A stretch of DNA of 61,427 nt, the filler included. It is 7 parts of 7 records of this genome, joined end to end, with 100 filler letters (N's around TTAATTAATTAA, not from the genome) between each part and the next. Parts side by side here need not be neighbours in the genome. Positions count along the whole stretch, not along the records: positions 1 to 18,868 come from SRR31156797_54641; 6 more parts are not named here. One strand, 5' to 3'. The position numbers and the translations under genes were made by a program. The notes beneath the pieces were generated by a model. That model was not told the DNA's origin. It saw nothing but the letters and a program-made list of their open reading frames with translations, and did no database searches. Each line of letters starts with the position of its first letter. Within the stretch, counting starts at the first letter, position 1. Positions 1 to 20,635 of this stretch are shown here, in pieces.

Positions 1-1
1 A

Positions 2-2970: not shown

Positions 2971-2995
2971 CCCAAACCAGCAGGAGGTAAATCTT

Positions 2996-3532: not shown

Positions 3533-3542
3533 TTGAACGCCG

Positions 3543-4919: not shown

Positions 4920-4920
4920 T

Positions 4921-5655
4921 TTAGAACCTTCTTGATAGTTTATCCGCATAGATTTCCGGAATGCCGGCCTTACGGATCTTGGCGGCCGTGGCATGGAAGT
5001 CGTAGGGGATGAACTCCACCGTGAGCAGGCCTGTCTCCGTGTCAAAGGAGAGGGCCTTGGCACAGGGATCACCGTCCCGGGGCTGGCCCACGGCGCCGGC
5101 ATTGACGATATATTTTTTTTGCCTCGAGAGGATTGTCTCCCCCGCCCCAAGCTCCCGGTGGGTAAGGGTGTGGCCGTCCCAATCGATCAGCTCCAGGTCG
5201 TGGGTGTGGCCGGTGAAGCAGATCCACTGGTCCATGGCTTTCATTTTACTCGCAAGCCGTTTGTCCGAGAGCTGGAACAGGTAGACAAAGGGCGAGGACG
5301 GGGGAACCCCGTGGACAAAGCGCATGTTTTCCAGGACCCGGTACTTGGGCAACCGGGCAATGGTTTTTCGAAACGGCCGGGAAAGCGTCTTGAGGGTGTG
5401 GCCCACGGCCTCCCTTGCCACGGGATTGAAGCAGACGAGGAAAGCCGGGTCGGCAACGGCCATCTCGTGGTTGCCCTTTACCGAGGAGATTTTGCGCCGG
5501 CAGACTTCCTCCATCACACCGTTGGGGTCGGGGCCGTAGCCGATGTTGTCCCCCAGGGAGATCACCCGGTCCGGGCGAATCCGGTCCACCCAGGCCAGGA
5601 CCTCGTTCAGGGCCTCCAGGTTGCCGTGGATGTCGGATAGGATTGTTATGAGCAT
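4921..5655 (-). CDS. Calcineurin-like metallophosphoesterase (YfcE/MJ0936-like)
   Basis: DIHGN, LGDNIGYG, GNHE, HG, GHTH and NAGAVGQPRDGDP motifs. Confidence 0.93.
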   Translation of the reverse strand: MLITILSDIHGNLEALNEVLAWVDRIRPDRVISLGDNIGYGPDPNGVMEEVCRRKISSVKGNHEMAVADPAFLVCFNPVAREAVGHTLKTLSRPFRKTIARLPKYRVLENMRFVHGVPPSSPFVYLFQLSDKRLASKMKAMDQWICFTGHTHDLELIDWDGHTLTHRELGAGETILSRQKKYIVNAGAVGQPRDGDPCAKALSFDTETGLLTVEFIPYDFHATAAKIRKAGIPEIYADKLSRRF

Positions 5656-5828
5656 GGTGTTCCTTTCTTTGTTCCTGTTTTTTTGTTCAAGATAGCATGG
5701 AACGGAAACCCGGACAATTCCTTTCCCCTGGCCCGGATAAAGGAAAAACTGTCCGGGGCGGGCTTGATCGTCCTGACCGTAACGTGCTATGGTGACATAA
5801 GAAAGGCAACGCTCTCATCCCCCATGGA

Positions 5829-6632
5829 ATGAAAAATAACCGGAAAAATGGAATAGCGATGTTTTTAATCAAAAAAAGCTTCCTGTACCTGACCGTATCC
5901 CTTGTCTTGATCTTTGTCTTCCCTGCCGGTGGCTGTGCCCGGGAGGCAAACGGTGTCAAACTTGCGGCTTTTGATTATGCGCCGTTTTATTACCAAAAGG
6001 ATAACAGGGTCCGGGGCATTGCCGTTGAACTGGTTGAAGAAATTTTCAGCCGGATGAATATGACGTTTGAACTTAAGCTCTATCCCCTTAAAAGGGCATT
6101 GGAGAACCTGAAAACCGGAAAAAATGATGCAATGATGATTTTGCTTAAAACCCCGGAAAGGGAGCAATATCTAATTTACACATCTCCGGTTGTAACGGTT
6201 CGGGGGCTGATATGGTGGGCCGCCGATCGAGAACGGGCCGGCATGGCGTTTGAGCGATTGGAAGATTTGACTCCCTTTTCAATCGGAGTCACCAGGGGCT
6301 ATAGTTATGGCGTCGAGTTTGACAACCTCCTGAGAAATATGAGGGTTGAAGTGGTTAACTCAGACCGGGACAATTTCAAAAAATTGCTATGGCACAGGAT
6401 TGATGCGTTTCCTTGCAATGAAATCGTCGCAAAGGGAATCTTCAAGAACAATAAAGCGTTTCAGGGCAAATTTATCCATTCAAAAAAGGCCTATATTGAA
6501 TGGGTCCTGCACATGGGAATCAGTAAAAAATCCGGTCTGACGGATAAGCTCCCCGACATGAACAGCATTATTGATGATTTACACAAAGAAGGCTTTATCC
6601 ATAACGCCGTAAAAAAATATACGGAAGACTGA
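5829..6632 (+). CDS. Family-3-type solute-binding protein (orphan)
   Basis: Signal peptide, YAPF, PLKRA, KTPERE and IGVTRGYSYG motifs; the true start may be ATG 5859. Confidence 0.88.
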   Translation: MKNNRKNGIAMFLIKKSFLYLTVSLVLIFVFPAGGCAREANGVKLAAFDYAPFYYQKDNRVRGIAVELVEEIFSRMNMTFELKLYPLKRALENLKTGKNDAMMILLKTPEREQYLIYTSPVVTVRGLIWWAADRERAGMAFERLEDLTPFSIGVTRGYSYGVEFDNLLRNMRVEVVNSDRDNFKKLLWHRIDAFPCNEIVAKGIFKNNKAFQGKFIHSKKAYIEWVLHMGISKKSGLTDKLPDMNSIIDDLHKEGFIHNAVKKYTED

Positions 6633-6676
6633 ATCGCCCGGGTGACTTCCATTCACAAATCAAAAGGAGAAAGAAT

Positions 6677-7291
6677 ATGTATGTGTTGGCCATAAACGGA
6701 AGCCCAAGAAAAGGCGGCAACACCGAAATTCTTCTTACCCATGCCCTTGAGCCTTTGAAACAATTCGGCTGGGACACGGAATTGATTCAGGTGGGCGGGA
6801 AAAAAATCAGGGGATGCAAGGCCTGTTACAAATGCATGGAAAACAAGGACATGCGCTGTGCCATAAAGAAAGATATCTTTAACGATGTCATGGAAAAAAT
6901 GCTCAAGGCGGATGCGCTGATTCTCGGTTCTCCTACCTATTTTACGGACGTTTCCGCCGAACTCAAAGCGCTGCTGGACCGCTCGGGATTTGTTGCATTG
7001 GCCAATGACCGTGCGTTTCGCGGAAAGATTGGCGCGGCCGTGGTCGCGGTAAGACGGGGGGGAGCCACCCATGTGTTTGACACCATCAACCACATGTTCC
7101 TGATGTCACAGATGATCATACCAGGCTCCATTTACTGGAACCTGGGCATTGGGATGGATAAGGGCGATGTGAAAGAGGATGAAGAGGGGCTGCTCAATAT
7201 GCGAAACCTGGGAGAAACCATTGCATGGCTCGGTAACGCCATGCAGCCCCACCTGGAGACCTTTCCCCGCGCGGCAAAATCGTCTGAATAG
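6677..7291 (+). CDS. Iron-sulfur flavoprotein / NADPH-dependent FMN reductase (flavodoxin-like)
   Basis: GSPRKGGNT, compact CKACYKC...C motif, GSPTYF, RRGG; SD AGGAG. Confidence 0.92.
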   Translation: MYVLAINGSPRKGGNTEILLTHALEPLKQFGWDTELIQVGGKKIRGCKACYKCMENKDMRCAIKKDIFNDVMEKMLKADALILGSPTYFTDVSAELKALLDRSGFVALANDRAFRGKIGAAVVAVRRGGATHVFDTINHMFLMSQMIIPGSIYWNLGIGMDKGDVKEDEEGLLNMRNLGETIAWLGNAMQPHLETFPRAAKSSE

Positions 7292-7333
7292 ATCAGTCGG
7301 CCGTATTTTTGTTCGGATGCGGGCAGGAATGGG

Positions 7334-7376
7334 AAGAAATCGGAATTTGGCCCGGGTCAAATTTCGATTTCTTTTT
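7334..7376 (+). terminator. 20-bp hairpin, probable terminator
   Basis: AAGAAATCGGAATTTGGCCC/GGGTCAAATTTCGATTTCTT; the only two mismatches are G-U pairs on the + strand; ends in a T run. Confidence 0.65.
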
Positions 7377-7537
7377 CCCGGCTATCAATATCCCTTTACA
7401 GGTATCATTGCGATTGATATGAGACAGTAAGCAATACCCATCGCACATGCAGGTCGGATTTCATTCAAATGGCCATGACATCCGGATCTGTGCAATTCTT
7501 GTTATCGCTGTAACAACCAAAAATAAGGGTGGATTTC

Positions 7538-7699
7538 ATGGAACTTATCAAAATTATCTGTGCAATCATACTGCCGCCGTTGGGAGTGTTCCTCCAGGTC
7601 GGTATAGGAAAGCATTTCTGGATCAACATTATTTTAACTTTATTCGGCTATATCCCCGGCATTGTTCATGCCGTATGGGTCGTTGCAAAAAACAAATAA
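7538..7699 (+). CDS. YqaE/Pmp3 family small membrane protein (53 aa, absent from the ORF track)
   Basis: Translates as MELIKIICAIILPPLGVFLQVGIGKHFWINIILTLFGYIPGIVHAVWVVAKNK, with the family motifs ILPPLGV and GYIPGIVHA. Confidence 0.95.
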   Translation: MELIKIICAIILPPLGVFLQVGIGKHFWINIILTLFGYIPGIVHAVWVVAKNK

Positions 7700-7838
7700 G
7701 AAAGTACCGTTCAGAGTGGGTACCCAGCTCTGTTTATCGTCTTCTGTGCAGCCTGAGTACTTTAAGTCGTTTTACAGACCTGTTTTATCGGGATCATGAT
7801 CCACATATATATCTTATAACTTGTATTGGGGACCGCAA

Positions 7839-8666
7839 ATGGATATTCAATCAGTTTCATGTGTATGTTTTTCGCCAACAGGGACCACCAGGACAATCGT
7901 AAGGAATATTGCCGAGGGGATGCAGCCGGAGCAGATCGAGATGATGGACTGTACGAACCGGGCCCGGCGTAAAGGGGAGTCTTTGGGTTTGAATAATGAT
8001 ATCGTCATTCTCGCAACACCTGTCTATTATGGCCGGGTTCCGGAAGAGGTGGTTCCGTTTTTGAAAACACTGAATGGGGAGAATAGACCGGTTGTGCTTG
8101 TGGTGGTATATGGAAACCGGGAATACGAGGATGCTCTCCTGGAACTTCATGATATCTCAGCGGCACGGGGATTTACTCCGGTGGCAGGGGGCGCGTTCAT
8201 TGCCGAGCATTCCTACTCCAATTCTTCCCGGCCAATTGCCCATGGACGGCCTGATTCCGATGATATTGAAAAGGCACAGGCCTTTGGTGCCGAAATAAGG
8301 GATAAACTCAAAGGGATCGATTCCTTAACGGATATGGGGGAAATCCGTATTCCGGGAAATGTGCCGTATATTGAACCCACAAATCTGCATATGCTCAAGC
8401 AGGTTCGTCAAACACTGTCTTTTACGCCCGTTACGGATACGGACAAGTGTACCCAATGCGGACTGTGTGCTGAAGCTTGCCCCACGGCGGCAATTGATCC
8501 GGACGATGTGTCAAAGATAGATAAATGGGAATGCATGATCTGTTTCGCATGTATCAAAAATTGTCCGGAACAAGCCAAACAAATGACAGACCCCCATTTT
8601 AACGGGGCCATTGAGCAATTACAGATGGCCTGTCAGGAAAGGAAAGAACCTGAGATCTATCTTTAA
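7839..8666 (+). CDS. EFR1-type flavodoxin-ferredoxin fusion protein
   Basis: FSPTGTT, PVYYGRVP, VYGNREYEDALLEL and EHS motifs; C-terminal CTQCGLCAEACP and CMICFACIKNCP. Confidence 0.92.
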   Translation: MDIQSVSCVCFSPTGTTRTIVRNIAEGMQPEQIEMMDCTNRARRKGESLGLNNDIVILATPVYYGRVPEEVVPFLKTLNGENRPVVLVVVYGNREYEDALLELHDISAARGFTPVAGGAFIAEHSYSNSSRPIAHGRPDSDDIEKAQAFGAEIRDKLKGIDSLTDMGEIRIPGNVPYIEPTNLHMLKQVRQTLSFTPVTDTDKCTQCGLCAEACPTAAIDPDDVSKIDKWECMICFACIKNCPEQAKQMTDPHFNGAIEQLQMACQERKEPEIYL

Positions 8667-8728
8667 AAGAGAATTAACAGCCTGTTGAAAAAAATCGCCA
8701 AGGATGACCTTCTAATTCTTCAAGGATC

Positions 8729-8737
8729 TGTTATAAT
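8729..8737 (+). promoter_or_regulatory. Extended -10 sigma70 promoter element
   Basis: TGtTATAAT about 110 nt upstream of the diguanylate cyclase start. Confidence 0.5.
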
Positions 8738-8844
8738 GGGTTTTGTTGTTTTAACATGATGACAAACGAATGGTCGGTCTCAGATGGATATTGGGAGGTT
8801 TGAGATGTAAAGATCCCTCCCAATATGCGGTGACAGGGTGGAAT

Positions 8845-10209
8845 ATGTTCAGCAGGCTTATCAAGTATATCAATGACCATGAAGAATGGCTTATGGGAAG
8901 AATTCTGGAGTATGCCCGGCAAAGGGATTATACAAAGTATACGTCAACCCTCAAAGAGGCCTGGCGCCTCTCCATTTCCGGATTGTCGGCATCCCTTGAA
9001 GAAGTCCTCCTGGCACGGGGGGAAGAGATGGAGCTCGGCCCTGACGAGGATTACACCCGGGATCCCGCCGCCCAATTCGGAATTGTCGAGGCCCATCGCC
9101 ATCGAAAACGGGGGGTCAGCCTTGATATGTTTCTGGGCCTGATGAAATATTACCACCAGTCCTATCAGGATCTGATCCTGGAATCACGCTTTGATCCTTC
9201 GGAACAACAGCGGTACTCTAATTTGATCAACCGGTTCTTTGACCGGGTGGAAATTGGATTTTGCACAACCTGGGCCGCTTCCGAACAGAAGCAATTGGTG
9301 AGTGAACTGCGGGTCCGAAACCGGGAGATGACCAACGAAAAAAACAAATATCTCACAATATTTGAAAGCTTGTCCATGCCGGTTTTTATTGTGGATACGG
9401 CCGGTAAAATAGAAAACATGAACCATGTCGCCGCCAGTATGCTGAATGCCGGCACACAGCCCGGTGCAACGTACTATGACGATAAGGAATCCCTGTTTCT
9501 CATTGACGCGTTTCCCTGGATGGCGGACCGGTATGAGGCGTTTGTCCGGAGCGACGAGCCCGGTTTTTCCTGTGAGAAATCCCTGGGTGGCGAAGCGCGG
9601 TATTTTTCGGTGTCATGCTCCCGCTCCCTTGATATATCCGGTAAATTCTCCGGGACAATCGTGATTGTAGAAGATATTACAGACCGTAAAAAACTGGAGA
9701 ACGAGTTAGAAAAACTTGCCACCACCGATCCGTTGACTGGCGCAAGAAACAGGCGATCCTTTTTGGAGTTGTTTGAACAGGAGCTGACGCGATCCCACCG
9801 GTATGACCATCCCCTTGCGCTTTTTCTGATGGATATCGATCATTTTAAAAAAATAAATGATACCCATGGACACGATGTCGGAGACAGGGTGTTGAAGCGC
9901 CTGGTTGAAGAATCCCTTGGTATGCTGCGGGATTCCGACCTGTTTGGCCGATGGGGCGGGGAGGAATTCATTGTGTTGCTGCCGGAAACAGGCCTTCACC
10001 GGGCATCAACCGTCGCGGAGAGATTACGGGGCCGTCTGGCCGGGATGCAACTGGACAGCGGCAGTGGCGCCGCAATTCAATTTACCGTGAGCATTGGTCT
10101 TACCGTTGTTAAGGATAAAACCGCATTGATCGATGATATCGTCAAAATAGCGGACAAAGCCCTGTATTTGGCCAAGGAGCAGGGCCGCAACAGGGTTGTT
10201 TTACAATAA
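8845..10209 (+). CDS. Diguanylate cyclase (N-terminal helical RsbRD-like domain, PAS, GGDEF)
   Basis: DPLTG, DIDHFKKINDTHGHDVGD, RDSD I-site, GGEEF, ADKALYLAKEQGRN. Confidence 0.93.
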   Translation: MFSRLIKYINDHEEWLMGRILEYARQRDYTKYTSTLKEAWRLSISGLSASLEEVLLARGEEMELGPDEDYTRDPAAQFGIVEAHRHRKRGVSLDMFLGLMKYYHQSYQDLILESRFDPSEQQRYSNLINRFFDRVEIGFCTTWAASEQKQLVSELRVRNREMTNEKNKYLTIFESLSMPVFIVDTAGKIENMNHVAASMLNAGTQPGATYYDDKESLFLIDAFPWMADRYEAFVRSDEPGFSCEKSLGGEARYFSVSCSRSLDISGKFSGTIVIVEDITDRKKLENELEKLATTDPLTGARNRRSFLELFEQELTRSHRYDHPLALFLMDIDHFKKINDTHGHDVGDRVLKRLVEESLGMLRDSDLFGRWGGEEFIVLLPETGLHRASTVAERLRGRLAGMQLDSGSGAAIQFTVSIGLTVVKDKTALIDDIVKIADKALYLAKEQGRNRVVLQ

Positions 10210-10237
10210 AGAGGGGTCGGGGAGGGTAGGAAAAAAG

Positions 10238-11437
10238 ATGGGTGTTCGCTATAAATTCAACCGCATGGAACTTGCCGGATCGTTCGGCGATCTGGGGACC
10301 CTGCTTCCCCTGGCCATGGGAATGATCATGGTCAATGGCCTGAGCCCATACGGGTTGTTTCTGTCCATCGGGCTGTTCTATATCCTTTCGGGGATCTATT
10401 ATGGTGTGACAGTGCCTGTTCAGCCAATGAAGGTGATTGGCTCCTATGCCATTGCCACTGCCTTGAGTGCTTCCCAGATTACGGCTTCAGGGCTCCTGGT
10501 CGGGCTGTTCCTTTTGGTGATCGGGGGGACCGGCGCCATCACGGTGGTGGGCAGATATATCCCCAAATCCGTGATCCGGGGGGTTCAAATGGCCACCGGC
10601 ACCCTGTTGATGGCCCAGGGCGTCCGGTTCATGGCGGGCAACTCAAAATTTCAACTTCTCCAGGCCGCGGCGGAACCGTACCTGACCCTCCAGAGCGTCG
10701 GGGGCATCCCCATCGGGATCATCATCGGGATCGTCGGCGGCATGATTACGCTTCTGTTCATCGATAACAGGCGATTGCCCGCAGGCATCCTGGTTATCTT
10801 CTACGGCTTTGTCCTGGGGCTGGTCTTTGGCGTCAATGACGGGCTGGGCAGCCTGAGCCCCGGTTTATACCTGCCTGAATTTCTGCCCTTCGGGTTTCCC
10901 TCCGGCGCGGATTTCTCTTTTGCCCTCATGGTGCTTGTGCTGCCGCAACTGCCCATGACACTGGGAAACGCCGTGGTTGCCAATGCGGACCTGTCCAGGG
11001 GGTATTTTGAAGAGGACTCCGGGAAGGTAACCTATCGGGCATTGTGCTTCAGCATGGGCCTGGCCAACCTCTTTTCCTTTTGCGTGGGCGGCATGCCCCT
11101 GTGCCACGGGGCCGGCGGATTGGCCGCCCATTACCGGTTTGGCGCCCGCACCGCCGGGTCCAACCTCATGATCGGGTTGATCTTTGTGCTGCTGGCAATC
11201 TTCCTGGGGCCCCATACCCTGGCGATTGTGAACCTGATTCCGTTTTCCGTGCTGGGCGTGCTCCTGATCTTTGCCGGCAGCCAGCTTGCCCTTACCATCA
11301 TTGACATGACAGAGCGAAATGATCTGTTCGTGATTCTGTTGATGCTGGGCATTACCCTGGCATCAAACCTTGCCATCGGTTTTTGCGTGGGGATCATCCT
11401 CGCATACGCCCTGAAACATGAGAAACTGACTGTCTGA
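10238..11437 (+). CDS. MOT1-family molybdate/sulfate transporter
   Basis: ELAGSFGDLGT, PVPVQPMK-like motif, PLCHGAGGLAAHYRFGART; multiple TM helices. Confidence 0.9.
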   Translation: MGVRYKFNRMELAGSFGDLGTLLPLAMGMIMVNGLSPYGLFLSIGLFYILSGIYYGVTVPVQPMKVIGSYAIATALSASQITASGLLVGLFLLVIGGTGAITVVGRYIPKSVIRGVQMATGTLLMAQGVRFMAGNSKFQLLQAAAEPYLTLQSVGGIPIGIIIGIVGGMITLLFIDNRRLPAGILVIFYGFVLGLVFGVNDGLGSLSPGLYLPEFLPFGFPSGADFSFALMVLVLPQLPMTLGNAVVANADLSRGYFEEDSGKVTYRALCFSMGLANLFSFCVGGMPLCHGAGGLAAHYRFGARTAGSNLMIGLIFVLLAIFLGPHTLAIVNLIPFSVLGVLLIFAGSQLALTIIDMTERNDLFVILLMLGITLASNLAIGFCVGIILAYALKHEKLTV

Positions 11438-12667
11438 TTATGTAAAGGGGGAATCTCCTTCTTTATCGTCTTGGCAGGTCAGGTTCCCTAGCCTTCTGTC
11501 TGTTGCTGGAGCCACACCGGGTGGTTTCTCCTTTTGGCTCCTGTATCTTTTTATCCACAATGCCACGCAGAGAAGAACCACAGGGTCGGTTGTTTCAAAC
11601 GTCCGGCCCGGGAGAAAGAGTTGCGCCGTTTCCAGCAGGGCCGCCCAGACCAGGACGAACAGGGTCGATTGTTTCCAGGGCTTTCCCGTCTCCGCCATGA
11701 GCCATACAAGGCTGCCCAGGAAAAAAAGGGTTTCAAACAGGGCGATGGTGCTTGCAAGGACTGGGTTGGACAGAAAACCGTCAAAGGGCAGGAGGGCGAA
11801 GTCTCCGGCCAGGGCTGAAAACTGAAAGGGCCGGAGTCCGTCAACGGTCAGCATGAGCCATAAAAGCCCCAGGAGCAGGCTTGCCCGTCTGGGAGAGTCC
11901 TTGAGTCCCCCTTGCCAGATCACCATGGCGAATAGTGCCCCGGCGGCCGTGGAAAGGGTTTCCATGCGCCCGTCAACCACTGTCACCAGGAAAAAGGTGA
12001 TCATAACCGTGGCCATGCAGCGGCTTGTTTTCAGCGCCTGCTGTCGTGCTGATGAGATCATGTGGAAAAAGAGGGACCAGGCCACTGAGGCTTGGGCAAA
12101 CCCATGGAAAGAAACATGGGGGGAGAGAAAATGGTTCTTGATGGAATGGGTCAGATCGGGTAAGTGGGGGTAGGGTATCACAGGAACGATCCGTGAGATG
12201 ATCCAGCAGGCGCCGATGACGAGGGGGGCCGTAAGCCAGAGTTCATTGGACCTTCGGCCGCCGATAAACCTGAGGCGGTCCAGGTTGCCCATGACGCTGC
12301 CAACAAGGATACCAAGGGTTGCAGCGGCCACCGTTGCCATGGATGGCACCCTTGTGTAGATGAAAAGGTGGGACCACTGGAGACAGAGTTCCATCAAACA
12401 ACCTGTTCCCACGAGCTTGGCCACAGCCCGGGCATTGTTCGTAATCAGGGCGCGGATGCCGAGAAAGCCGAACATGGCGTATAACATGAAATTGACCACC
12501 AGTTCCCCGGGATCCGTGAAACCGGGACTAAAAATATGTTTTTTTATCTGTTCCAGTACGCTTGAATGGCTGTGGAAATGAAACGGGTAGGTGTTGCTGT
12601 AAACGATGAGAAAGGCAAACACCATGAACAAGAGAAATTCTGTTTTGGCTGTCTGAAATTTTAACAT
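11438..12667 (-). CDS. VanZ-like multi-pass membrane protein
   Basis: YPFHF, VNFMLY..FG, E..Q.F..R and ETAQLFLPGRTFETTD VanZ-type segments, present twice. Confidence 0.7.
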   Translation of the reverse strand: MLKFQTAKTEFLLFMVFAFLIVYSNTYPFHFHSHSSVLEQIKKHIFSPGFTDPGELVVNFMLYAMFGFLGIRALITNNARAVAKLVGTGCLMELCLQWSHLFIYTRVPSMATVAAATLGILVGSVMGNLDRLRFIGGRRSNELWLTAPLVIGACWIISRIVPVIPYPHLPDLTHSIKNHFLSPHVSFHGFAQASVAWSLFFHMISSARQQALKTSRCMATVMITFFLVTVVDGRMETLSTAAGALFAMVIWQGGLKDSPRRASLLLGLLWLMLTVDGLRPFQFSALAGDFALLPFDGFLSNPVLASTIALFETLFFLGSLVWLMAETGKPWKQSTLFVLVWAALLETAQLFLPGRTFETTDPVVLLCVALWIKRYRSQKEKPPGVAPATDRRLGNLTCQDDKEGDSPFT

Positions 12668-12682
12668 GAAGGCAAATAGAGT

Positions 12683-13846
12683 ATGAATACAAGCCGTTGT
12701 CAAGAGAAGAAACCGTGGCCTGTCAATTATTTCAGGGGCATGGTGCTGCTCATGGGGGCCATTTTTCTGATGACGCCTTCCGTGGCAAGGGCCCTTGCCC
12801 CTGACGAGGTCCTTGTGATTGCCAATCGGAACGCTTCCAGCAGTATCGGCCTTGCCCGCTACTACATGGAACAGCGAAAGATCCCCAGGGACAATCTTTT
12901 GATTCTTTGGATCACGGATAAGGAGGTGTGCACCCGGGAGGCGTATCTCAAAAAGGTGGCGGTGCCTGTAAGGCGGTACCTTGAGGGTGAGAAAGGACGA
13001 AAGATTCGGTGCCTGTTGACCATGTACGGCATGCCCCTCACGATTTCACCCCCCGAGCCCAAGGGGGAAGAAAAAGAAGCGTATAAGAAAACAAACGACA
13101 AATGGGCGTCCCTGGATTCGGAACTCACCCTTGTGAGGAGACGGTCCTATCCCCTTGGATTCTGGCTTGCCAATCCGTTTTACTATCCCCTGAGGGACGC
13201 CAAACTGCCGATCAGGAAAAGCGATGTGACCATGGTGTGCCGCCTGGACGGTCCGGATGCCGAAACCGTGAAACGGATGATCAATGACGCCCTCCATGCC
13301 GAGAAGCATGGACTTGGCGGGAACGCTTATTTTGACGCCAGGTGGCCTGATCCCGGTGATGACCGGAAGCTGTCCGGCTACGCCTTGAGCGACAAGCTCA
13401 TCCATCGTGCGGCAAGATCCGTCAGGGAAAGCAAGCTTGCCGAGGTGGTCCTGGATGACGGGGGACGGCTGTTTCAACCCGGGGATTGCCCTAACGCCGC
13501 CCTCTATTGCGGCTGGTACAGCCTTTCCAACTATGTGGATGCCTTTACCTGGAGCCGGGGGGCGGTGGGGTTCCATGTGGCAAGCGGCGAATGCACCACC
13601 CTGAAAAAAAAGGACAGCAACGTGTGGTGCAAGCGGATGCTTGAAGATGGGATTGCCGCCACCGTGGGGCCTGTGGGCGAGCCCTATGTCCAGTCTTTTC
13701 CCAACCCTGAGATCTTTTTCAAGCTCCTTTGCGACGGCTACCTCACCCTGGTGGAAAGCTACTATGTCAGTCTTCCGTTCGTGTCATGGAAAATGGTTCT
13801 TCTGGGTGATCCCCTTTACCGACCCTATAAAAAATTCCGGAAATAA
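12683..13846 (+). CDS. TIGR03790 family secreted protein
   Basis: Signal peptide then ALAPDEVLVIAN, ARYYM..RKIP, ASLDSEL, RLDGP, LYCGWYS, GPVGEPY, GDPLYRP. Confidence 0.88.
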   Translation: MNTSRCQEKKPWPVNYFRGMVLLMGAIFLMTPSVARALAPDEVLVIANRNASSSIGLARYYMEQRKIPRDNLLILWITDKEVCTREAYLKKVAVPVRRYLEGEKGRKIRCLLTMYGMPLTISPPEPKGEEKEAYKKTNDKWASLDSELTLVRRRSYPLGFWLANPFYYPLRDAKLPIRKSDVTMVCRLDGPDAETVKRMINDALHAEKHGLGGNAYFDARWPDPGDDRKLSGYALSDKLIHRAARSVRESKLAEVVLDDGGRLFQPGDCPNAALYCGWYSLSNYVDAFTWSRGAVGFHVASGECTTLKKKDSNVWCKRMLEDGIAATVGPVGEPYVQSFPNPEIFFKLLCDGYLTLVESYYVSLPFVSWKMVLLGDPLYRPYKKFRK

Positions 13847-13895
13847 TCGTTGTGTTTGCCTTATCAAACTGCTAATTACCCTCCCTTGTGAATAA

Positions 13896-13961
13896 GCCCA
13901 TATAATCCTGATAGCCTGGTTCAGGAGTCTCTACCGGATGGCCTTCCATCCGACTATGGGT
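13896..13961 (+). ncRNA. Purine (guanine-type, C74) riboswitch aptamer with variant loops
   Basis: P1 GCCCATA/TATGGGT; J1/2 TAA; P2 TCCTGA/TCAGGA; J2/3 GTCTCTAC; P3 CGGATGG/CCATCCG; J3/1 AC (C74 equivalent at 13954); lies upstream of a purine permease and PRTase. Confidence 0.92.
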
Positions 13962-14060
13962 CATGGCGGTGCTGTTTCTTTACCATGCGGCATTGGCCAG
14001 GGGACTCCTGTTTCTGTTTCTTGGGTGTATGGGTATGAGAAAACATCAAGGAGATTGATA

Positions 14061-15116
14061 ATGGAGTACTTGAAAGATTTGATGGCGGCCCTGAGCGTGA
14101 TTCTCAACGGCCTGCCCCAGGGGCTTCTCGCCCTGTCCTTTGGATTTGCATCCGTGCCCACCGCCCTTGCCTTTGTGGCCGGCGCCGCAGGCTGCCTTTT
14201 TTTCAGCTGTGTCGCCCCCATTTCGTTCCAGGCGGAAACCATCACCCTGGCCGGTACCATGGGAAAAAACATGCGAGAACGCCTCTCAATGATTTTCTTC
14301 GGTGCGGCGGCCATGGCCACCATCGGCGTGTTCGGCTTTTTAGAGCGGATCGTCACCTTTGTGGGACCCGCCATCACCAGCGGCATGATGGCCGGGGTCG
14401 GGATCATGCTCACCAAGGTGGCCATTGACATGGCAACAAAGAACAAGGCCGTGGGCTTCAGCTCCATTGGCGTGGGATTCATCACCTACATGGTGACAAA
14501 AGATCTGGTGTACACCATCACCGTGTCGGTCATGCTCTCGAGTGTCATTGCCATCGCCCTGAAGCAGAAGTCGGACATCGACACCAACGGCACGGAGCGG
14601 CTCAAGCTCCAGAAGCTCATCATCAACCCCTCCGTGGTGCGGGGCGCCCTTGCCATGGTCTGCCTCAACATCGGCGCCAACATCGCCTTTGGCAAGATCA
14701 CCGGGAACATTGCCGGTTCATCGGTCAATGTGGATCACCTGGCCATTTACAGCAGCCTTGCCGACATGGCCTCCTCCCTGTTTGGCGGCGGTCCTGTGGA
14801 GTCGATCATATCGGCCACGGGCAGCGCCCCCCATCCCGTGTTCTCCGGGGTCCTGATGATGTCACTCATGGCGATCATCCTCTTTGCCGGGCTCTTGCCC
14901 AGGATCGGCCGGTTCGTTCCCAGTGAATCCATTGCAGGCTTTCTTTTTGTGCTGGGGGCCATCGTTACCGTGCCCATCAACGCAGCCTCGGCCCTGTCAG
15001 GTGAAGGTTCCGTTGTGGGAGGGGTCACCATGGCCGTGACGGCCATCACGGACCCGTTCCTTGGAATGGTTGCAGGACTTGTGGTAAAATTGTTGGGATC
15101 AATGGCAGGGCTCTAA
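14061..15116 (+). CDS. NCS2/AzgA-like nucleobase permease
   Basis: SD AAGGAG then ATG 14061; NGLPQGL, SFQAETIT and GGGPVESIISAT motifs; highly hydrophobic. Confidence 0.88.
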   Translation: MEYLKDLMAALSVILNGLPQGLLALSFGFASVPTALAFVAGAAGCLFFSCVAPISFQAETITLAGTMGKNMRERLSMIFFGAAAMATIGVFGFLERIVTFVGPAITSGMMAGVGIMLTKVAIDMATKNKAVGFSSIGVGFITYMVTKDLVYTITVSVMLSSVIAIALKQKSDIDTNGTERLKLQKLIINPSVVRGALAMVCLNIGANIAFGKITGNIAGSSVNVDHLAIYSSLADMASSLFGGGPVESIISATGSAPHPVFSGVLMMSLMAIILFAGLLPRIGRFVPSESIAGFLFVLGAIVTVPINAASALSGEGSVVGGVTMAVTAITDPFLGMVAGLVVKLLGSMAGL

Positions 15117-15136
15117 ACTGAAGAAGAGGTGGTGTT

Positions 15137-15685
15137 ATGGAGAAGACATATCGATTGGAAGTGGCAGGGGTGGTTCGGGAACTTCCCATCATTCAGATAA
15201 GTGAAACCCTTTGTATTGCAAGCTTTGTGATCCTCGGGGATACCGGGGTGGTCAAGGCTGCGGCCCCAAAACTGGTGGAACGGCTGCCCGAGGTGGACGT
15301 GATCGTCACCGCCGAGGCCAAGGGCATTCCCCTGGCCCATGAGGTCTCTCACCTTTTGGGCATGGAGCGGTATTATGTGGCAAGAAAGAGCATCAAGGCC
15401 TATATGAAAGATCCGGTGGTGGACGGGGTCAACTCCATCACCACCACGGAGAAGCAGCTGCTTTGCATGGACGGCACCGATGCCGGGGCGATCCGGGGAA
15501 AGCGGGTCGCCATCGTGGACGATGTGATCAGCACAGGGGAATCCCTGGAAGCCCTGGTGCGCCTGGTCAAGGCCGCAGGCGGCATCGTCACGGCCAAGGC
15601 CGCCATCCTGGCCGAAGGAGATGCGGCCCAACGGGATGATATCATCTTCCTTGGGGAGCTGCCGCTCTTTCCCATAGAAAAATAA
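15137..15685 (+). CDS. Purine phosphoribosyltransferase (APRT/Xpt-like, type I PRTase)
   Basis: TAEAKGIPL, ARKS and PRPP-binding VAIVDDVISTGES motifs. Confidence 0.92.
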   Translation: MEKTYRLEVAGVVRELPIIQISETLCIASFVILGDTGVVKAAAPKLVERLPEVDVIVTAEAKGIPLAHEVSHLLGMERYYVARKSIKAYMKDPVVDGVNSITTTEKQLLCMDGTDAGAIRGKRVAIVDDVISTGESLEALVRLVKAAGGIVTAKAAILAEGDAAQRDDIIFLGELPLFPIEK

Positions 15686-15690
15686 AGAAA

Positions 15691-15717
15691 AGGAGCCCGG
15701 TTGCACGCCGGGCTCCT
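15691..15717. terminator. Terminator-like hairpin
   Basis: AGGAGCCCGG-ttgcacg-CCGGGCTCCT directly after the PRTase stop codon. Confidence 0.7.
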
Positions 15718-15860
15718 CCTGAATTCGGTTGTTATTTATAGTCTTTGAAGGAATTTTATGGATCATCCCGTTTTGAACTCTTATCCTTGCTATCTTTCCC
15801 ATCATGTTGTATCGGGAATAAGTATGAAGACTTCGAAATGAATATTTTATTGGAGGCATT

Positions 15861-16628
15861 GTGATGAAAACAGGCGGATGGCTGTTGACAGTGTTTATGT
15901 TTGCCTGTGTTGCATTTTGCCATGCCGGGGAATCGGTTATCATCGTGTCCGATGATTATAGACCGTATACATCATCAAAAAATGGCGGTTCAGGCGTTAT
16001 CCTTGATATTGTGAAACAGGTGTTTGACGAAATTCATATCAAAGCGGTGTTCAAATTTTACCCGTGGAAACGATGTGAGGCAAATGTGGCGAAGGGAAGA
16101 GCCTTTGCAGCGGTTCCATATTTTAAGACCGAGGAGCGGCTGGGAAAATATAATTTTTCTGATCCGGTCATCTATTCTTTCAATCGCTTTTTTTACAATA
16201 AAGATAAATTCCCGAAGGGGTTTGAATGGAACACTCTGGAAGATTTTCGAGGATACACGATGGGCGGTATCATCGGGTACTGGTACATGCCTGCATTCGA
16301 AAGAGCCGAGTTAAGAACCGAGGCCGTTGCCACCGATTTGCAGAATATGAAAAAGCTTATCAATCGGCGGATAGACTTCACAATCCTTGATGAACTGACT
16401 GGAAAGTGGCTGCTCCATGAATATTTTCCCATGGAAACGGGAAAAATCGGAATGCTTGAAAAACCGGAAAGTTTGAAAGAATTTCATTTGCTTATTTCCA
16501 GGACCTACCCCAATACCGACGAGATAACGGAACAATTCAACAACGGATTGAAGATACTTAAGGAAAAAGGCGGTTACATGAAAATCCTGCAGAACTACAA
16601 TATGCCGCCTCATTTTGCTGTGCCTTGA
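15861..16628 (+). CDS. Family-3-type solute-binding protein (orphan)
   Basis: Signal peptide, YRPY, YPWKRC, KTEER, GGIIGYWY, FNNGLKILKEKG. Confidence 0.88.
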   Translation: MMKTGGWLLTVFMFACVAFCHAGESVIIVSDDYRPYTSSKNGGSGVILDIVKQVFDEIHIKAVFKFYPWKRCEANVAKGRAFAAVPYFKTEERLGKYNFSDPVIYSFNRFFYNKDKFPKGFEWNTLEDFRGYTMGGIIGYWYMPAFERAELRTEAVATDLQNMKKLINRRIDFTILDELTGKWLLHEYFPMETGKIGMLEKPESLKEFHLLISRTYPNTDEITEQFNNGLKILKEKGGYMKILQNYNMPPHFAVP

Positions 16629-16733
16629 TCGCCGGCATGCTCATTTTGAAGTACGATAACAATGTGTTGTTTCGTTTCGATTTTTTAGGTGTCCTACACC
16701 ACGACAATGTAATGGATGATATGGGAAGGGACC

Positions 16734-17204
16734 ATGATTGAGAATTTGATTCGAATAAGCGTGGCGAACCTGATATTCTTTTTTTTTATGTCAATGACCG
16801 TTTTTGCCGATGTGAGGGTGCTGGTCATTCCCAAAGGTACAAAGACCACTTTTTGGCAAAAAGTTCATGAAGGCGCGCAACAGGCGGGCAAAGATCTGGA
16901 AGTCCGTGTTATTTTCCGGGGGCCGTATACCGAAGATCAGCACACTGCGCAAAACGAAATCATTGTTGGCTTTGATTTCAACAGGACCATCAGGGATGCA
17001 ATTCTCAGCCATGAAATGGATGCGACCATCGCCCAGAATCCATTTCAGATTGGCTATTTAGGCGTTAAAACGGCTTATCAATTAACTCAAAACGAGGCCG
17101 TGCCCCAAAGGATTAACACCGACACAATACTGATTAACGCCAAGAACTATCAAAATCCTGAAGTGCAGATTATCATCGATTCAAATCTCACCCGGAACGA
17201 TTGA
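16734..17204 (+). pseudogene. Sugar-type (RbsB/LacI-like) periplasmic binding protein with a large in-frame internal deletion
   Basis: The N-terminal VIPKG..FWQKVHEGAQQAG..GP..AQNEII segment joins directly to the C-terminal VGFD..IAQNPFQIGYLGV segment; about half the normal length. Confidence 0.75.
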
Positions 17205-17386
17205 GTCAAGTTTTGTCTTACGCTGTATAAATTTCAAATCACTCATTATCTGTTTGGGAGAAAAAGTCCCGGCGAAAAATGAACGTTCCTTTACATACAT
17301 CATTGTTTTGGGTATGGATTTTTTCTGAAAATATCTGACGCCATACACTGGGCACGTTAAAAAAGGGAATTCCTAAAGGAGTTGAG

Positions 17387-18370
17387 ATGAGAAATGTCTG
17401 GACCGTCGTATGGGCTTTGCTTGTATTGTCTTTCCCTTTAAATCTGGTTGCCGGAGAAAAGAAAATTTTGAACATTGCGTCGTATCATCCTGATTCGTCC
17501 TGGGCTGCTGATTGTGTGGAAGGGATTGAGCGTGTCGTCCGTTCTCAATATCAGATTGAGAATCACTACATGGATACGAAAAGAATTCCTGTTTCAGAAT
17601 TTCAAAAAGCAGCTGATACGGCATGGAAAAAATACACAATTTTCAAACCCGATCTGGTTATGCTTGGGGATGACAATGCCCTGAGACTATTAGGCCCCAG
17701 ACTTGCCGGGACCAAGGTGCCTTTGGTTCATTACGGTATCAACAACAATCCCCGGGTATATTTCAACGGACAAATTCCCGAGAATGTATACGGCGTTCTG
17801 GAACGTCCCCTCATCTTCCCCTTCATTAGATACCTGAAAGACATTATTCCGGGATTAAAAAAAATTCTGGTCATGTTTGATGTCAGTTCTTCAAGCGATG
17901 CTGTAATTGCCGCTACGTTTCACGGAAAGAAGAGCGTATCCTTTAATGAAATCGGTTTTGAACTCAAAGTAAACGGAACTTGGAATGCGTGGCAAGATGC
18001 CTTGATTCGCTCCCAAAATGAATATCAAGCCATCATTATCGTCAATCATTTTACGGTAAAAGATGCTGACGGAAAAACGCTGGGAGAGAAGACCGTTATC
18101 AGAAAGGCTTCCCTTGTTTCACCTTTGCCGATTTTTGCTACCAATAATTTTGCTGTTCATTCGCAAGGTGCCGTCGGAGCATTGGTAATCGTTGGACAGG
18201 ATCACGGGGAAACCGCGGGAAGGTTGGCCGAAGATATTTTGAAGGGAAAATTAAATATTACTAAACATATTATCCAGAAATCCGGACAACTTTATTTCAA
18301 CAAGGAACAATTAGACAGATTCAATCTGAAGTTACCACGGAAGATTGAAAAGACGGTGGTCTTTCAATAA
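17387..18370 (+). CDS. ABC-type substrate-binding protein (ABC_sub_bind-like)
   Basis: Signal peptide; SYHP..W, YMDTKR, GDDNAL, GINNNPR and GVLERP motifs; SD AGGAG. Confidence 0.85.
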   Translation: MRNVWTVVWALLVLSFPLNLVAGEKKILNIASYHPDSSWAADCVEGIERVVRSQYQIENHYMDTKRIPVSEFQKAADTAWKKYTIFKPDLVMLGDDNALRLLGPRLAGTKVPLVHYGINNNPRVYFNGQIPENVYGVLERPLIFPFIRYLKDIIPGLKKILVMFDVSSSSDAVIAATFHGKKSVSFNEIGFELKVNGTWNAWQDALIRSQNEYQAIIIVNHFTVKDADGKTLGEKTVIRKASLVSPLPIFATNNFAVHSQGAVGALVIVGQDHGETAGRLAEDILKGKLNITKHIIQKSGQLYFNKEQLDRFNLKLPRKIEKTVVFQ

Positions 18371-18600
18371 GGGGGCTCTTCACTCCATCCGGCACCTTTG
18401 GTTTTGAGGTCAATCCCTTCCTGTTTTAAAGGCGGTTCGTTCCCCCCGATCCTTCCAGTATTGAGAATCAAATGGACTTCAGGGGGGACGCTTGTTAATA
18501 TGCATGAAATGCAGGTTCGTTTTTTCAACCCGAAAAGAGCATTGGGTACAATGACGAAGACCCAATTTATTAAATCGTTCCTTCTTCCAGGGGACTCCGG

Positions 18601-18675
18601 GGGGTACGGTCCATGATTGCCGATGGCACATTCGATGCCATTATTGAAAAATATGGATTCAGCGAACTGAGGTAA
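18601..18675 (+). pseudogene. Isolated C-terminal remnant of a family-3 solute-binding protein
   Basis: GVRSMIADGTFDAIIEKYGFSELR* matches the typical last helix of the family; no upstream gene body in frame. Confidence 0.55.
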
Positions 18676-18742
18676 GCGGGGACCGGCGAACCGGCCTGTA
18701 TCCTTTCCATCCGTTCAGGAGCGGGGCCGGGAGGCGTGCAAT

Positions 18743-18868
18743 ATGATCGTAAGCATTGATTTTCAAAAGATCACGGAAATATTTTCCATGGCGGAAGCGG
18801 ATGGAAGGGGGTCCCTCTATGAATATGAGACCTATGAACTTCTCAGGAACTCGGGGGCCGAGAGCATT
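18743..18868 (+). CDS. Probable ADP-forming acetate/acyl-CoA ligase family protein, N-terminus (3'-partial)
   Basis: SD GGAGG; MIVSIDFQKITEIFSMAEADGRGSLYEYETYELLRNSGAE resembles the A..GR..L.E.E...LL..G start of an ATP-grasp domain. Confidence 0.6.
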
Positions 18869-18968
18869 NNNNNNNNNNNNNNNNNNNNNNNNNNNNNNNN
18901 NNNNNNNNNNNNTTAATTAATTAANNNNNNNNNNNNNNNNNNNNNNNNNNNNNNNNNNNNNNNNNNNN
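18869..18968. other. Artificial contig linker
   Basis: N run, TTAATTAATTAA (stops in all six frames), N run; 100 nt. Confidence 0.99.
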
Positions 18969-20635
18969 AGATGGGATTTCCGTAAGGCCTTCCCCTCATC
19001 CTCGGCATAGATAGCATTCATCCGGGCCAACCGCACATCATCGGTGGAAAATCGGGGCTGACCACCGCCTCCTATACACCCACCGGGACAGGACATGACT
19101 TCTACAAAGTGGTATTCGGCCTTTCCGGCCTTGATGTTGTCGAGTACATCGGCGGCATTGCCCAGACCGTGGGCTACGGCGACTTTCAGTTCCACCCCTT
19201 CCAGGAAGGACCAATCGGGTACCGTTCCCTCAATGACCATGGAAGCCTCTTTAACTCCCTTGAGACCCACAACAGGGGTGAGACGGAGATTATCAAAGGG
19301 CAGTTCCCTTCCGGTGACGATTTCATAGGCCGTCCGCAGGGCGGCCTCCATAACCCCTCCGGTATTGGCAAAAATATCGGCAGCACCGGTGGATTCACCC
19401 ATGGGATTGTCCATTGTATTATCAGGGAGGGCATTGAAATCGATCCCCGCCCCCTTGATCATCCTGCCCAGTTCCCGGGTCGTCAGAACAAGATCCACAT
19501 CCTGGTAGCCGGAATCGTTCATTTCATCCCTGGCAGCCTCATATTTCTTGGCCGTACAGGGCATTATGGAGACCACCTTCATATTTTTGGGATCCACTCC
19601 CCGTTTCTGAGCAAAATAGGTCTTGGCAACCGATCCGAACATCTGCTGGGGAGATTTACAACTGGAGAGGTTCTCCAGAAAATCGGGATAGAAGTATTCG
19701 GCGAAATTGATCCACCCGGGAGAACAGGAGGTAAACATGGGCAAAGCGACCTCTTCCTTATCGACCAGGGCCTTTTTGAGACGGGTCAGAAGTTCCGTTC
19801 CCTCCTCCATGATCGTCAGGTCCGCGGTGAAGTTGGTGTCAAAAACGGCATCGAATCCCAGACTCTTGAGGGCTGTCACCATCTTGCCTGTCACAAGGGT
19901 CCCCGGCGAGTTGTCAAAACACTCGCCCAGGGCCGCTCGGATGGCCGGGGCTGTCTGGACCACGACGTATTTCGTGGGATCGTCTATCAGATCCCAGACC
20001 CGGTCGATGTCCGATTTCTCGATAATGGCACCGACGGGACAAACCGCCGCGCACTGTCCGCACTGGACACACTTCACATCGCTCAAGGGATGGGTAAAGG
20101 CCGGACCGATAAGTGTTTCATACCCCCGGTTCTGGGGAAAGAGCGCCCCGACCTTCTGTACCTCGTTACAGGCTGTGATACAGCGGCGGCATTTGATACA
20201 CTTTCCCGTATCCCGGACCAAAGCCAGGGTGGAACCATCCACATAAGTCTCCGGCTTTTCCCCTTCATATTCGGGAAAGGTAACCCCCATCTGGGAAGCC
20301 AGAGCCTGGAGCTCACAGTCCTCATTCCGGTCGCAGTACTGACAATTCCCCTCATGCTCACTCAGGATAAGCTCGATGACCATTTTCCGGGCTTCACGGG
20401 CCCTCTTACTGGTCGTCATCACCTTCATCCCATCGTAAACAGGCGTCGCACAGGCGGGCATCAGATTCACAGCACCCTCAACCTCAACGACACAGACCCG
20501 GCAGGCTCCCAGGGGCGCCTTTCCCTTTAAATAACAGAGGGTTGGAATTTTGGCCCCTGCTTTTTCTGCGGCGTCCAGAATGGTGGCGCCGGGTTTCACT
20601 TCAACTTCGCATCCGTTAACAATTACTTTATGCAT
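18969..20635 (-). CDS. hydA: [FeFe]-hydrogenase catalytic subunit, group A (3'-partial)
   Basis: N-terminal 2Fe-2S, His-ligated HEGNCQYC..C, two 4Fe-4S motifs; H-cluster motifs FTSCSPGW, MPCTAKKYE and EVMSCPGGCIGGGGQP. Confidence 0.97.

Follow-up and report, generated by a model that had tools for sequence, protein, structure and literature searches.

The stretch of DNA considered here, called the window throughout, comprises 61,427 nucleotides (filler included) in seven joined parts, the first of which (positions 1 to 18,868) comes from SRR31156797_54641, and it carries a purine riboswitch aptamer at positions 13896-13961, followed by the genes of a short NCS2/AGZA-like purine permease and of a phosphoribosyltransferase (PRT). 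A cmscan search of the complete window with Rfam 15 returned a single match at the gathering threshold, RF00167 (Purine) at 13878-13976 on the plus strand, with 56.6 bits (E 4.5e-07) against a gathering score of 37; the alignment spans model positions 1-102, i.e., the full model, with a deletion of three nucleotides in loop L3. The element is a guanine-class (C74) purine riboswitch aptamer and a member of RF00167. An earlier, sequence-only reading had seen in it an aptamer of the guanine type whose pocket is canonical and whose L3 is short; the Infernal search bears this out, and the positions and bases given there for U47, U51, C74, the loops and the helices are all exact. The explanation that accounts best for the data, and that is considered probable, is a working guanine-class riboswitch which came from Bacillota together with its gene cassette, and whose L3 would have been cut from seven to four nucleotides with the pocket left unchanged.

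The ligand pocket of the window aptamer contains U22, U47, U51 and C74, and a junction J2/3 of eight nucleotides without insertion. In an alignment of 42 aptamers, 41 of them distinct, the columns U20, A21, U22 and A23 (TATA) are invariant and the next column, A24, is variable; the ACUA columns of the J3/1 region are invariant, too. As far as sequence capacity goes, GG 13918-13919 and CC 13942-13943 can form the kissing pairs G37-C61 and G38-C60. The peripheral feature of the canonical dock, namely a seven-nucleotide L3 and two base quartets (A33.A66 on G38-C60 and U34.A65 on G37-C61), is not demanded by the Rfam model and is missing in the window: because the window lacks A64-A66 and has G, C and C in place of A33, U34 and A35, neither quartet can adopt the form it has in the solved structures. 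The partners of A33.A66 and of U34.A65 are gone jointly, as the sequence-only reading had it, with an L3 free of adenine and with G33, C34 and C35 in L2.

The same 42 aptamers served for the covariation analysis. Pairing is found in 91.6% of cells, compared with 74.2% in shuffles (none of 500 as high) and at most 48.6% in slid controls. Both sides change in 19 of the 23 pairs, including all seven pairs of P3 and all seven of P2 among the 41 distinct sequences, and the GG/CC kissing pairs are kept in every one of these 41. The two top pairs of P3 are G-C in the forms with a four-nucleotide L3 and mostly A-U in the seven-nucleotide forms of the Bacillota orthologues (columns 50-58: AU 26, GC 11, GU 3; columns 49-59: AU 21, CG 9, GC 8). 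Because these top pairs covary across the set, P3 is taken as a helix of seven pairs closed over a four-nucleotide loop, and a reading with an eight-nucleotide L3 (GGCCUUCC) was rejected. Nor is the kissing helix of the window taken to be longer, since U36.U62 adjoins the GG/CC pairs. Among aptamers with a four-nucleotide L3 (L088-L206) a possible third kissing pair, 36-62, gives a weak signal, pairable in 22 of 32 compared with 17.3 in shuffles (42 of 2000 shuffles as high, relatedness not controlled); with a seven-nucleotide L3 the signal is absent (21 of 37 pairable, 21.9 in shuffles).

The aptamer lies 99 nucleotides 5' of the permease ATG (14061) and 47 nucleotides 3' of the stop codon of a TIGR03790-family gene, which has no visible tie to purine metabolism. 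The permease itself matches no Pfam or NCBIfam model; 1486 of the 7999 candidates scored were counted among its relatives, whose source names read guanine permease, NCS2 family permease or AGZA family (xanthine/uracil) permease. Among the 80 related loci, 79 have the PRT gene directly 3' of the permease, and the lone exception is a contig of 1 kb. The permease-PRT pair is a fixed cassette across Bacillota and the Desulfobacterales clade, and its purine substrate appears to be uncharacterised. As part of the probable overall explanation, the aptamer would control this two-gene cassette for purine uptake and salvage. The interval from 13600 to the aptamer yielded no sigma-70-like promoter. Further along the window, a large minus-strand iron-sulfur/hydrogenase-like open reading frame (ORF; 18917-20674) has a translation ending in a run of X, owing to masked N letters at about 18917-18970. 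A survey of the features of the locus, including those predicted by folding, is compiled in Table 1.

Table 1. Features of the riboswitch locus, given in positions of the window.
Feature	Position	Strand	Description and basis
Upstream neighbour	12683..13846	+	387-aa TIGR03790-family protein, 336.9 bits; no Pfam match
P1 5' strand	13896..13902	+	GCCCAUA; pairs with 13955-13961; RF00167 alignment; P1 covaries
J1/2	13903..13905	+	U22 (13903), A23, A24; sequence
P2 5' strand	13906..13912	+	UCCUGAU; six standard pairs with 13920-13926, U.U on top
L2	13913..13919	+	AGCCUGG; G37 G38 (13918-13919) kept; A33 to G, U34 to C, A35 to C
P2 3' strand	13920..13926	+	UUCAGGA; with J2/3 makes a segment resembling a ribosome-binding site
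J2/3	13927..13934	+	GUCUCUAC; G46, U47 (13928), U51 (13932), C53; canonical 8 nt
P3 5' strand	13935..13941	+	CGGAUGG; seven Watson-Crick pairs with 13946-13952
L3	13942..13945	+	CCUU: C60 C61 (13942-13943) and two U; 3 nt below the model; no adenine
P3 3' strand	13946..13952	+	CCAUCCG; sequence, covariation
J3/1	13953..13954	+	A73, C74 (13954), the guanine specificity base
P1 3' strand	13955..13961	+	UAUGGGU; sequence, RF00167 alignment, covariation
Linker hairpin	13964..13999	+	predicted in both ViennaRNA folds
Switch segment AGGGGACUCCUG	13999..14010	+	predicted to pair with 13922-13932 in the unfolded state of the aptamer; doubles as a weak 5-bp hairpin ahead of a U-rich tail
UUUCUUG	14017..14023	+	predicted ribosome-binding-site mask; pairs with CAAGGAG 14047-14053
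UGUAUGGGU	14026..14034	+	P1 3'-strand look-alike; predicted to pair with 13896-13904 in the ligand-free minimum free energy fold
Shine-Dalgarno AAGGAG	14048..14053	+	7 nt 5' of the ATG; sequence
Permease	14061..15116	+	351-aa short NCS2/AGZA-like purine permease, first regulated gene; ORF
PRT	15137..15685	+	182 aa; PF00156; NF005592 / PRK07322 'adenine phosphoribosyltransferase' subfamily, 248.5 bits

Conservation and horizontal origin

From a scan of one genome per species, combined with permease alignment, 80 related loci were kept, 74 from Bacillota and six from Thermodesulfobacteriota, the latter comprising L001 (titled Desulfobacterium sp.), Desulfoluna spongiiphila, D. butyratoxydans, a metagenome-assembled genome (MAG) of Desulfoluna, and two Desulfobacterales/Desulfobacteraceae MAGs. 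The nearest locus is L001, with a permease 96% identical to that of the window, and the proposed sulfate-reducing host is upheld in so far as it is a Desulfobacterales relative. In the 20 loci tested first, RF00167 was found upstream without exception: the six Thermodesulfobacteriota leaders (L001-L004, L006 and L007) gave matches of 99 nucleotides with 54.3-64 bits and a four-nucleotide L3, and the 14 Bacillota leaders gave matches of 102 nucleotides with 74.1-89.8 bits. Altogether the aptamer is present in 59 of the 80 loci, 53 recognised by motif search and six of the remaining 27 by Rfam. In the other 21 permease-PRT loci RF00167 was not found within the available upstream flank, some of these flanks being short; they come mainly from Siminovitchia and Brevibacillus (L026-L034, L039, L045, L053, L057, L058, L064-L066, L068, L069, L074, L077 and others), and such cassettes must have other control, or control from further upstream. 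As to its length, L3 has seven nucleotides in 42 of the 59 loci (Bacillota), six (CCUUAA or CCAUAA) in nine (Sporosarcina, Lysinibacillus, Lederbergia), five (CCUAA) in two (Bacillota), and four in the six Thermodesulfobacteriota loci, plus the window. The window and L001 combine CCUU with the L2 sequence AGCCUGG; the other five leaders, of the Desulfoluna type, have CCGU, GACAUGG in L2 and an A.A mismatch in P3, with L2 and L3 identical in all five. Contigs of four DNA runs contained no new loop variants; three short X3 pieces and one X6 piece resemble L001 and L004, and X2 and X5 gave no piece. Among the sequencing runs, none of RNA was found to contain the stretch.

Both quartets are lost in the window, and its Rfam score of 56.6 bits falls below those of the Bacillota orthologues (74-90 bits), as might be expected of a decaying relic of a transferred leader whose ligand binding is gone. 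This explanation is judged very improbable. Among the seven leaders with a four-nucleotide L3, the 66-nucleotide aptamer core is 85-100% identical, compared with 32-75% at four-fold degenerate sites of the permease gene, so that near-saturated synonymous sites stand beside a preserved core (in the comparison of L006 with L007, 97% for the core and 32% for the four-fold sites). The stems keep pairing through compensatory changes, the loops of the Desulfoluna type are the same in five genomes, and the linkers 3' of the aptamer have diverged past alignment among the seven leaders, yet five of them retain a complement to the aptamer. Because the same aptamer with a four-nucleotide L3 precedes the same cassette in six Desulfobacterales genomes, with a core that outconserves synonymous sites, the comparison argues that the aptamer is maintained and is not a decayed copy.

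In an unrooted tree of 81 permeases, obtained by a quick IQ-TREE search, the seven Thermodesulfobacteriota permeases form one clade (Shimodaira-Hasegawa-like approximate likelihood-ratio test, SH-aLRT, 99), nested among the 74 Bacillota rows beside L005 and Tissierellia. A single RF00167 match, that of the cassette, is present in each of five Thermodesulfobacteriota genomes; the closest genome, G001, has one match. No match was found in 150 other sampled genomes of the phylum or in 150 of the order; in the family of G002 it occurs in 5 of 11 genomes and in the family of G001 in 2 of 101. Among sampled Bacilli, on the other hand, 134 of 151 genomes are positive, with 372 matches, of which the best 150 were listed. 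In Thermodesulfobacteriota, by these counts, the class is rare, as the sequence-only reading had implied. The G+C content of the cassette is 0.586 for the permease gene and 0.583 for the PRT gene (0.51 for the window), as against 0.35-0.39 for the permease gene in L005, L008 and L010; because it lies so far above that of the Bacillota relatives, the transfer is taken to be old. The most parsimonious course of events, as judged from the sequences, is that leader and cassette were acquired jointly from Bacillota by a Desulfobacterales lineage and that the truncation of L3 followed. After the transfer, L3 would have shrunk from seven to four nucleotides with loss of the adenines of the A35.A64, U34.A65 and A33.A66 contacts, the L2 partners of these adenines would have mutated, the two top pairs of P3 would have changed from A-U to G-C, and the loop-loop dock would have been left with the pairs G37-C61 and G38-C60. 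A second purine riboswitch in the family of G001 (L087, G344:C505, 1501-1600, minus strand) has canonical loops, a G+C content of 0.33 and 73.4 bits; it precedes a different gene, and its features suggest that it was acquired independently or lies on a contaminating contig.

Recurrence of short L3 loops

In a metagenome scan for aptamers with a P3 region of 18 nucleotides, at least 119 stretches matched. About a third of the retrieved metagenome loci are chance matches without P2/P3 pairing; all 23 metagenome candidates that were tested, including L130, L137 and L147, score above the Rfam cut-off, with 39.5-66 bits. A frame of seven positions, CCNN and again seven positions occurs in 44 of 99 distinct aptamers, a set biased by the way it was collected, and the closing pair in these 44 is standard in 22 (G-C 14, A-U 5, G.U 2, U-A 1) and G.A in 20. 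In genomes, the P3 region of 18 nucleotides is absent among the 150 listed of 223 pattern matches from 151 Bacilli, and the pattern occurs in 7 of 301 Clostridia genomes, none of them with a four-nucleotide loop closed by a Watson-Crick pair. Judged from these counts, the four-nucleotide L3 is rare in species-representative genomes, its frequency in the family being bounded, and it is a recurrent minority form that is not peculiar to this organism.

The metagenomic group with CCGA or CCAA in L3 precedes Amidohydro_1 genes for proteins of about 421 amino acids in eight of eight cases tested. Relatives of these proteins are named guanine deaminase (Ruminococcaceae, JGI records) or amidohydrolase family protein (Oscillospiraceae and Clostridiales MAGs), and several of the protein clusters have more than 1000 members, so the genes are numerous in metagenome collections. 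The leaders L093, L118, L123, L125, L126, L130, L136, L137, L142, L147 and L158 are of this kind; their L3 is CCGA, CCAA or CCGG, and G46 is separated from P2 by an additional nucleotide. In L137 a tetrahydrofolate (THF) riboswitch (RF01831, 62.7 bits; 1657-1752, plus strand) lies about 80 nucleotides from the purine aptamer on the opposite strand, and the two leaders diverge. Loops of intermediate length are found in Bacillales (L038, L043, L046, L047, L049, L056, L061, L062, L063, L079 and L080), in Sporosarcina, Lysinibacillus, Lederbergia, a Bacillaceae MAG and Candidatus Paenibacillus intestinavium, with A35 of L2 changed to U or C. In the permease tree, the leaders with six or five nucleotides in L3 fall into a clade of their own, with 11 rows (SH-aLRT 99).

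The known contacts between the loops are A35-A64, U34-A65 and A33-A66 (PMC12282948, PMC3159443). With a seven-nucleotide L3, the bases A33, U34 and A35 are each kept in 44 of 44 aptamers; with six nucleotides they are kept in 5, 5 and 1 of 6, with five nucleotides in 2, 2 and 0 of 2, and in the four-nucleotide frame in 18, 7 and 35 of 40, respectively. The order of loss in L2 matches the known contacts, and the comparison indicates that the joint loss of loop partners holds generally, beyond the window. Along these lines, the sequence-only reading has to be revised in part. A variant that is rare or peculiar to one organism or clade is not what is found, since loops of six, five and four nucleotides are met again and again, both among Bacillales orthologues and in numerous aptamers from metagenomes. 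The possibility, raised there, that the loop variant is already common in RF00167 applies to some extent, in that the short L3 recurs and its aptamers pass the cut-off. The proposed structural subclass survives as a real variant of the dock; it had been put too strongly as regards rarity and specificity.

Ligand, dock and expression platform

In the canonical leader L005, whose permease is 79% identical to that of the window, J1/2, J2/3 and J3/1 are letter-for-letter the same. Because the junction strands and the cassette are shared with L005, and because J2/3 has no insertion and P2 and P3 are not swapped in length, we infer guanine or hypoxanthine as the most likely ligand. With a pocket identical to that of the canonical orthologues, the aptamer is unlikely to have changed its specificity; the shift in specificity put forward in the sequence-only reading is accordingly given up, the junction strands and the regulated cassette being those of L005. 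The affinity of the window aptamer, by analogy with loop variants of known aptamers, may have changed.

A new ligand class, in which the remodelled periphery would shift recognition to xanthine, a nucleoside, 2'-deoxyguanosine or an adenine-like compound, is not without precedent, as 2'-dG-I has both a truncated L3 and a new specificity, for which differences in distal parts are said to be needed (PMC6847200), guanine-II discriminates more than 100-fold better even though U22, U51 and C74 are retained (PMC9295807), and the PRT of the window is labelled an adenine PRT. It is nevertheless regarded as improbable, given that J1/2, the eight-nucleotide J2/3 and J3/1 are the same as in canonical orthologues controlling the same cassette, that P2 and P3 both have seven base pairs, so that there is no length swap of the Mesoplasma type, and that the genes code for a nucleobase permease and a PRT, not for a ribonucleotide reductase. 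Considerably more weight, though short of an even chance, is given to a reduced dock that alters performance: guanine would be bound more weakly or with greater dependence on Mg2+, or the kinetics would be faster, with specificity still for guanine or hypoxanthine. Such behaviour would fit a translational switch that works thermodynamically, in a host whose purine levels differ. In guanine riboswitches given loops of the 2'-dG-I type, guanine binding dropped more than 50-fold (PMC8872408), the loop-loop contact has been called essential for binding (PMC2018637, PMC3764141), and the ligand-free, truncated dock of the Mesoplasma florum aptamer needs Mg2+ or a low temperature to form (PMC3159443). 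Furthermore, the truncation of L3 in the Desulfobacterales clade coincides with the loss of strong terminators of the Bacillota type, and the strengthening of the top P3 pairs to G-C looks compensatory. On the other hand, a swap of L2-L3 of 2'-dG-II to the xpt loops left the affinity unchanged, both docks being full-length (PMC6847200), and the G+C-rich stems P2 and P3 may compensate fully for the smaller dock.

The expression platform was folded with ViennaRNA over 13893-14078, and the energy of the fold with the aptamer enforced excludes tertiary and ligand energy. In the unconstrained minimum free energy (MFE) structure (-64.4 kcal/mol) the aptamer is disrupted and most of the Shine-Dalgarno sequence is unpaired; CAGGAGUCUCU (13922-13932) pairs with AGGGGACUCCUG, and GCCCAUAUA (13896-13904) with UGUAUGGGU. 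With the aptamer enforced (-60.0 kcal/mol), UUUCUUG pairs with CAAGGAG, and ACUCC (14004-14008) with GGAGU at the start codon. The duplex of the aptamer segment with the linker has -20.0 kcal/mol, as low as in none of 300 dinucleotide shuffles of the linker, and that of the linker with the Shine-Dalgarno region -18.6 kcal/mol (4 of 300 as low). A comparable aptamer-linker duplex is seen in five of the seven clade members, namely the window, L001, L004, L006 and L007 (1 to 9 of 300 shuffles for the latter four). From these models we infer, with a confidence somewhat above even, a switch that the ligand turns OFF at the level of translation initiation. In the ligand-free state, the P2 3' strand together with J2/3 (CAGGAGUCUCU) would pair with 13999-14010 and the P1 5' strand with 14026-14034, the Shine-Dalgarno sequence would be largely open, and the genes would be ON. 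Binding of the ligand would lock the aptamer and free the linker, which would then mask the Shine-Dalgarno sequence (UUUCUUG/CAAGGAG) and the start codon region (ACUCC/GGAGU) and turn the genes OFF.

It can be argued instead that control is transcriptional, with the hairpin at 13998-14010 and its U-rich tail as a ligand-dependent terminator and the pairing of 13999-14010 with the aptamer as the antiterminator; a variant of this scheme is a Rho-dependent effect following translational repression. A terminator-like match is indeed present (CAGGGGACUCCUG + UUUCUGUUUC, 13998-14010), it comprises the very segment that the unfolded aptamer would capture, and terminator-like hairpins by strict criteria occur in 28 of 52 Bacillota orthologous leaders, i.e., the ancestral type, compared with one of seven in the clade, the weak one of the window. 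The stem of that hairpin, however, has just five pairs and the tail is interrupted; four such sites occur in the region where 2.7 are expected by chance, the other six clade members have no comparable site by the same criteria, and the pairings of the Shine-Dalgarno sequence and the start codon are significant. Transcriptional switching is therefore thought rather unlikely, and weak termination at 14011-14020 is kept as an equally minor alternative to the predicted masking of the ribosome site.

Several observations weigh against the explanation of a maintained, translational guanine switch acquired from Bacillota. The L2 of the window is atypical even among four-nucleotide forms, with C35 where 35 of 40 have A35 and with an L3 devoid of adenine; because of the loss of binding with 2'-dG-I-like loops (PMC8872408), such an adenine-free loop could bind poorly. 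The combination of CCUU and AGCCUGG comes from two near-identical sequences only, so its own conservation is weakly sampled, and U.U stands in the window where a third kissing pair might form. The NCBIfam label of an adenine PRT, which is not experimental, sits oddly with a guanine sensor. In the quick-search tree, the fork that joins the clade to L005 and Tissierellia has a support of 88 and is drawn open. As for the platform, the aptamer-linker pairing is not significant in L002 (76 of 300 shuffles) and L003 (210 of 300), and that of the linker with the Shine-Dalgarno region is significant in only three of the seven clade members; because the pairings are weak in other members, the platform model rests mainly on the window, L001 and L004.

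A wider reading of the short-L3 forms is offered tentatively and is thought less likely than not: a guanine riboswitch may be able to work with a minimal dock of two G-C pairs and without adenine-mediated quartets. Such a dock would have arisen from the full one several times, namely in Desulfobacterales after the transfer, in Bacillales by way of six and five nucleotides, and in abundant gut Clostridia in front of guanine deaminase genes, the partner bases of L2 being relaxed in step at each origin. If so, the 'essential' quartets would be dispensable in G+C-rich stems, and if the variants differ measurably in affinity, Mg2+ dependence or kinetics, they would provide a series of naturally tuned forms of the riboswitch fold that has been studied most. 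The purine riboswitch is a standard model for RNA-ligand recognition and for the engineering of scaffolded aptamers, and a natural lineage that keeps the pocket and drops both quartets offers ready-made constructs for testing how much dock is needed; the same constructs bear on how peripheral structure sets affinity and kinetics. The locus would also be a clean case of the transfer of a riboswitch between phyla with its cassette, the platform having been rebuilt from a terminator to the masking of the ribosome site. Genome annotation is unaffected, as standard Rfam searches already call a purine riboswitch here.

Relation to known purine riboswitches

The base quartets of the solved structures have been described (PMC3764141, PMC3159443), and in PMC3764141 the A66-G38-C60 triple is given as fully conserved in the Rfam seed used there, with a highly conserved kissing interaction. 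Open-access full text yielded no account of a short L3 in a guanine-type aptamer; the only truncated L3 found there is that of 2'-dG-I. With that aptamer of Mesoplasma florum (mfl), for which the short L3 mentioned in the sequence-only reading is confirmed, the window shares the truncated L3, the retention of two inter-loop G-C pairs and the loss of A33.A66. The loop of mfl was called unique among purine aptamers in 2011, and it retains one U:A Hoogsteen pair between the loops, whereas L3 of the window is free of adenine; mfl differs further in its swapped P2 and P3 lengths, its altered pocket, its ligand 2'-deoxyguanosine and its ribonucleotide reductase target (PMC3159443). Neither the swap nor the altered pocket nor the ribonucleotide reductase context is found in the window, where P2 and P3 have seven positions each. 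Guanine-II and xanthine-II carry an insertion of one or two nucleotides in J2-3, along with other variant positions (PMC9295807; Hamal Dhakal et al. 2022), in contrast to the standard eight nucleotides of the window.

The guanine-I riboswitches (RF00167, of the xpt-pbuX type of Bacillus subtilis) have in common with the window the P1-P3 junction with U22, U47, U51 and C74, the eight-nucleotide J2/3, the GG/CC kissing pairs, the position in front of purine transport or salvage genes and the predicted OFF logic. The window differs in its L3 of four nucleotides instead of seven, in the absence of A64-A66, in the change of A33, U34 and A35 to G, C and C, in a platform that looks translational in place of a strong intrinsic terminator, and in its host phylum, Thermodesulfobacteriota. 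The canonical leaders of the same cassette (L005 from a Clostridiales MAG, Tissierella, Anaerosalibacter) share with it the cassette, the junction strands and the lengths of P2 and P3, and are set apart by CCGUAAA in L3, AAUA(U/A)GG in L2, A-U pairs on top of P3, low G+C content and scores of 74-90 bits. The leaders of Caryophanaceae, Lysinibacillus and Lederbergia, with six or five nucleotides in L3, and the metagenomic deaminase leaders, with four, have the shortening of L3, the relaxed partners in L2 and C74 in common with the window, and every one tested exceeds the Rfam cut-off; they differ in their independent origins, most members with four nucleotides keep A35 and a 3'-terminal A in L3, and the deaminase leaders have the additional nucleotide before G46 and regulate other genes. 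The add riboswitch of Vibrio vulnificus is an ON switch with U74; it senses adenine, in contrast to the window with its C74 and predicted OFF polarity. Both have a purine aptamer in a Gram-negative host, with translational control, predicted in the case of the window, and an apo fold that consumes strands of the aptamer (PMC5605240, for add).

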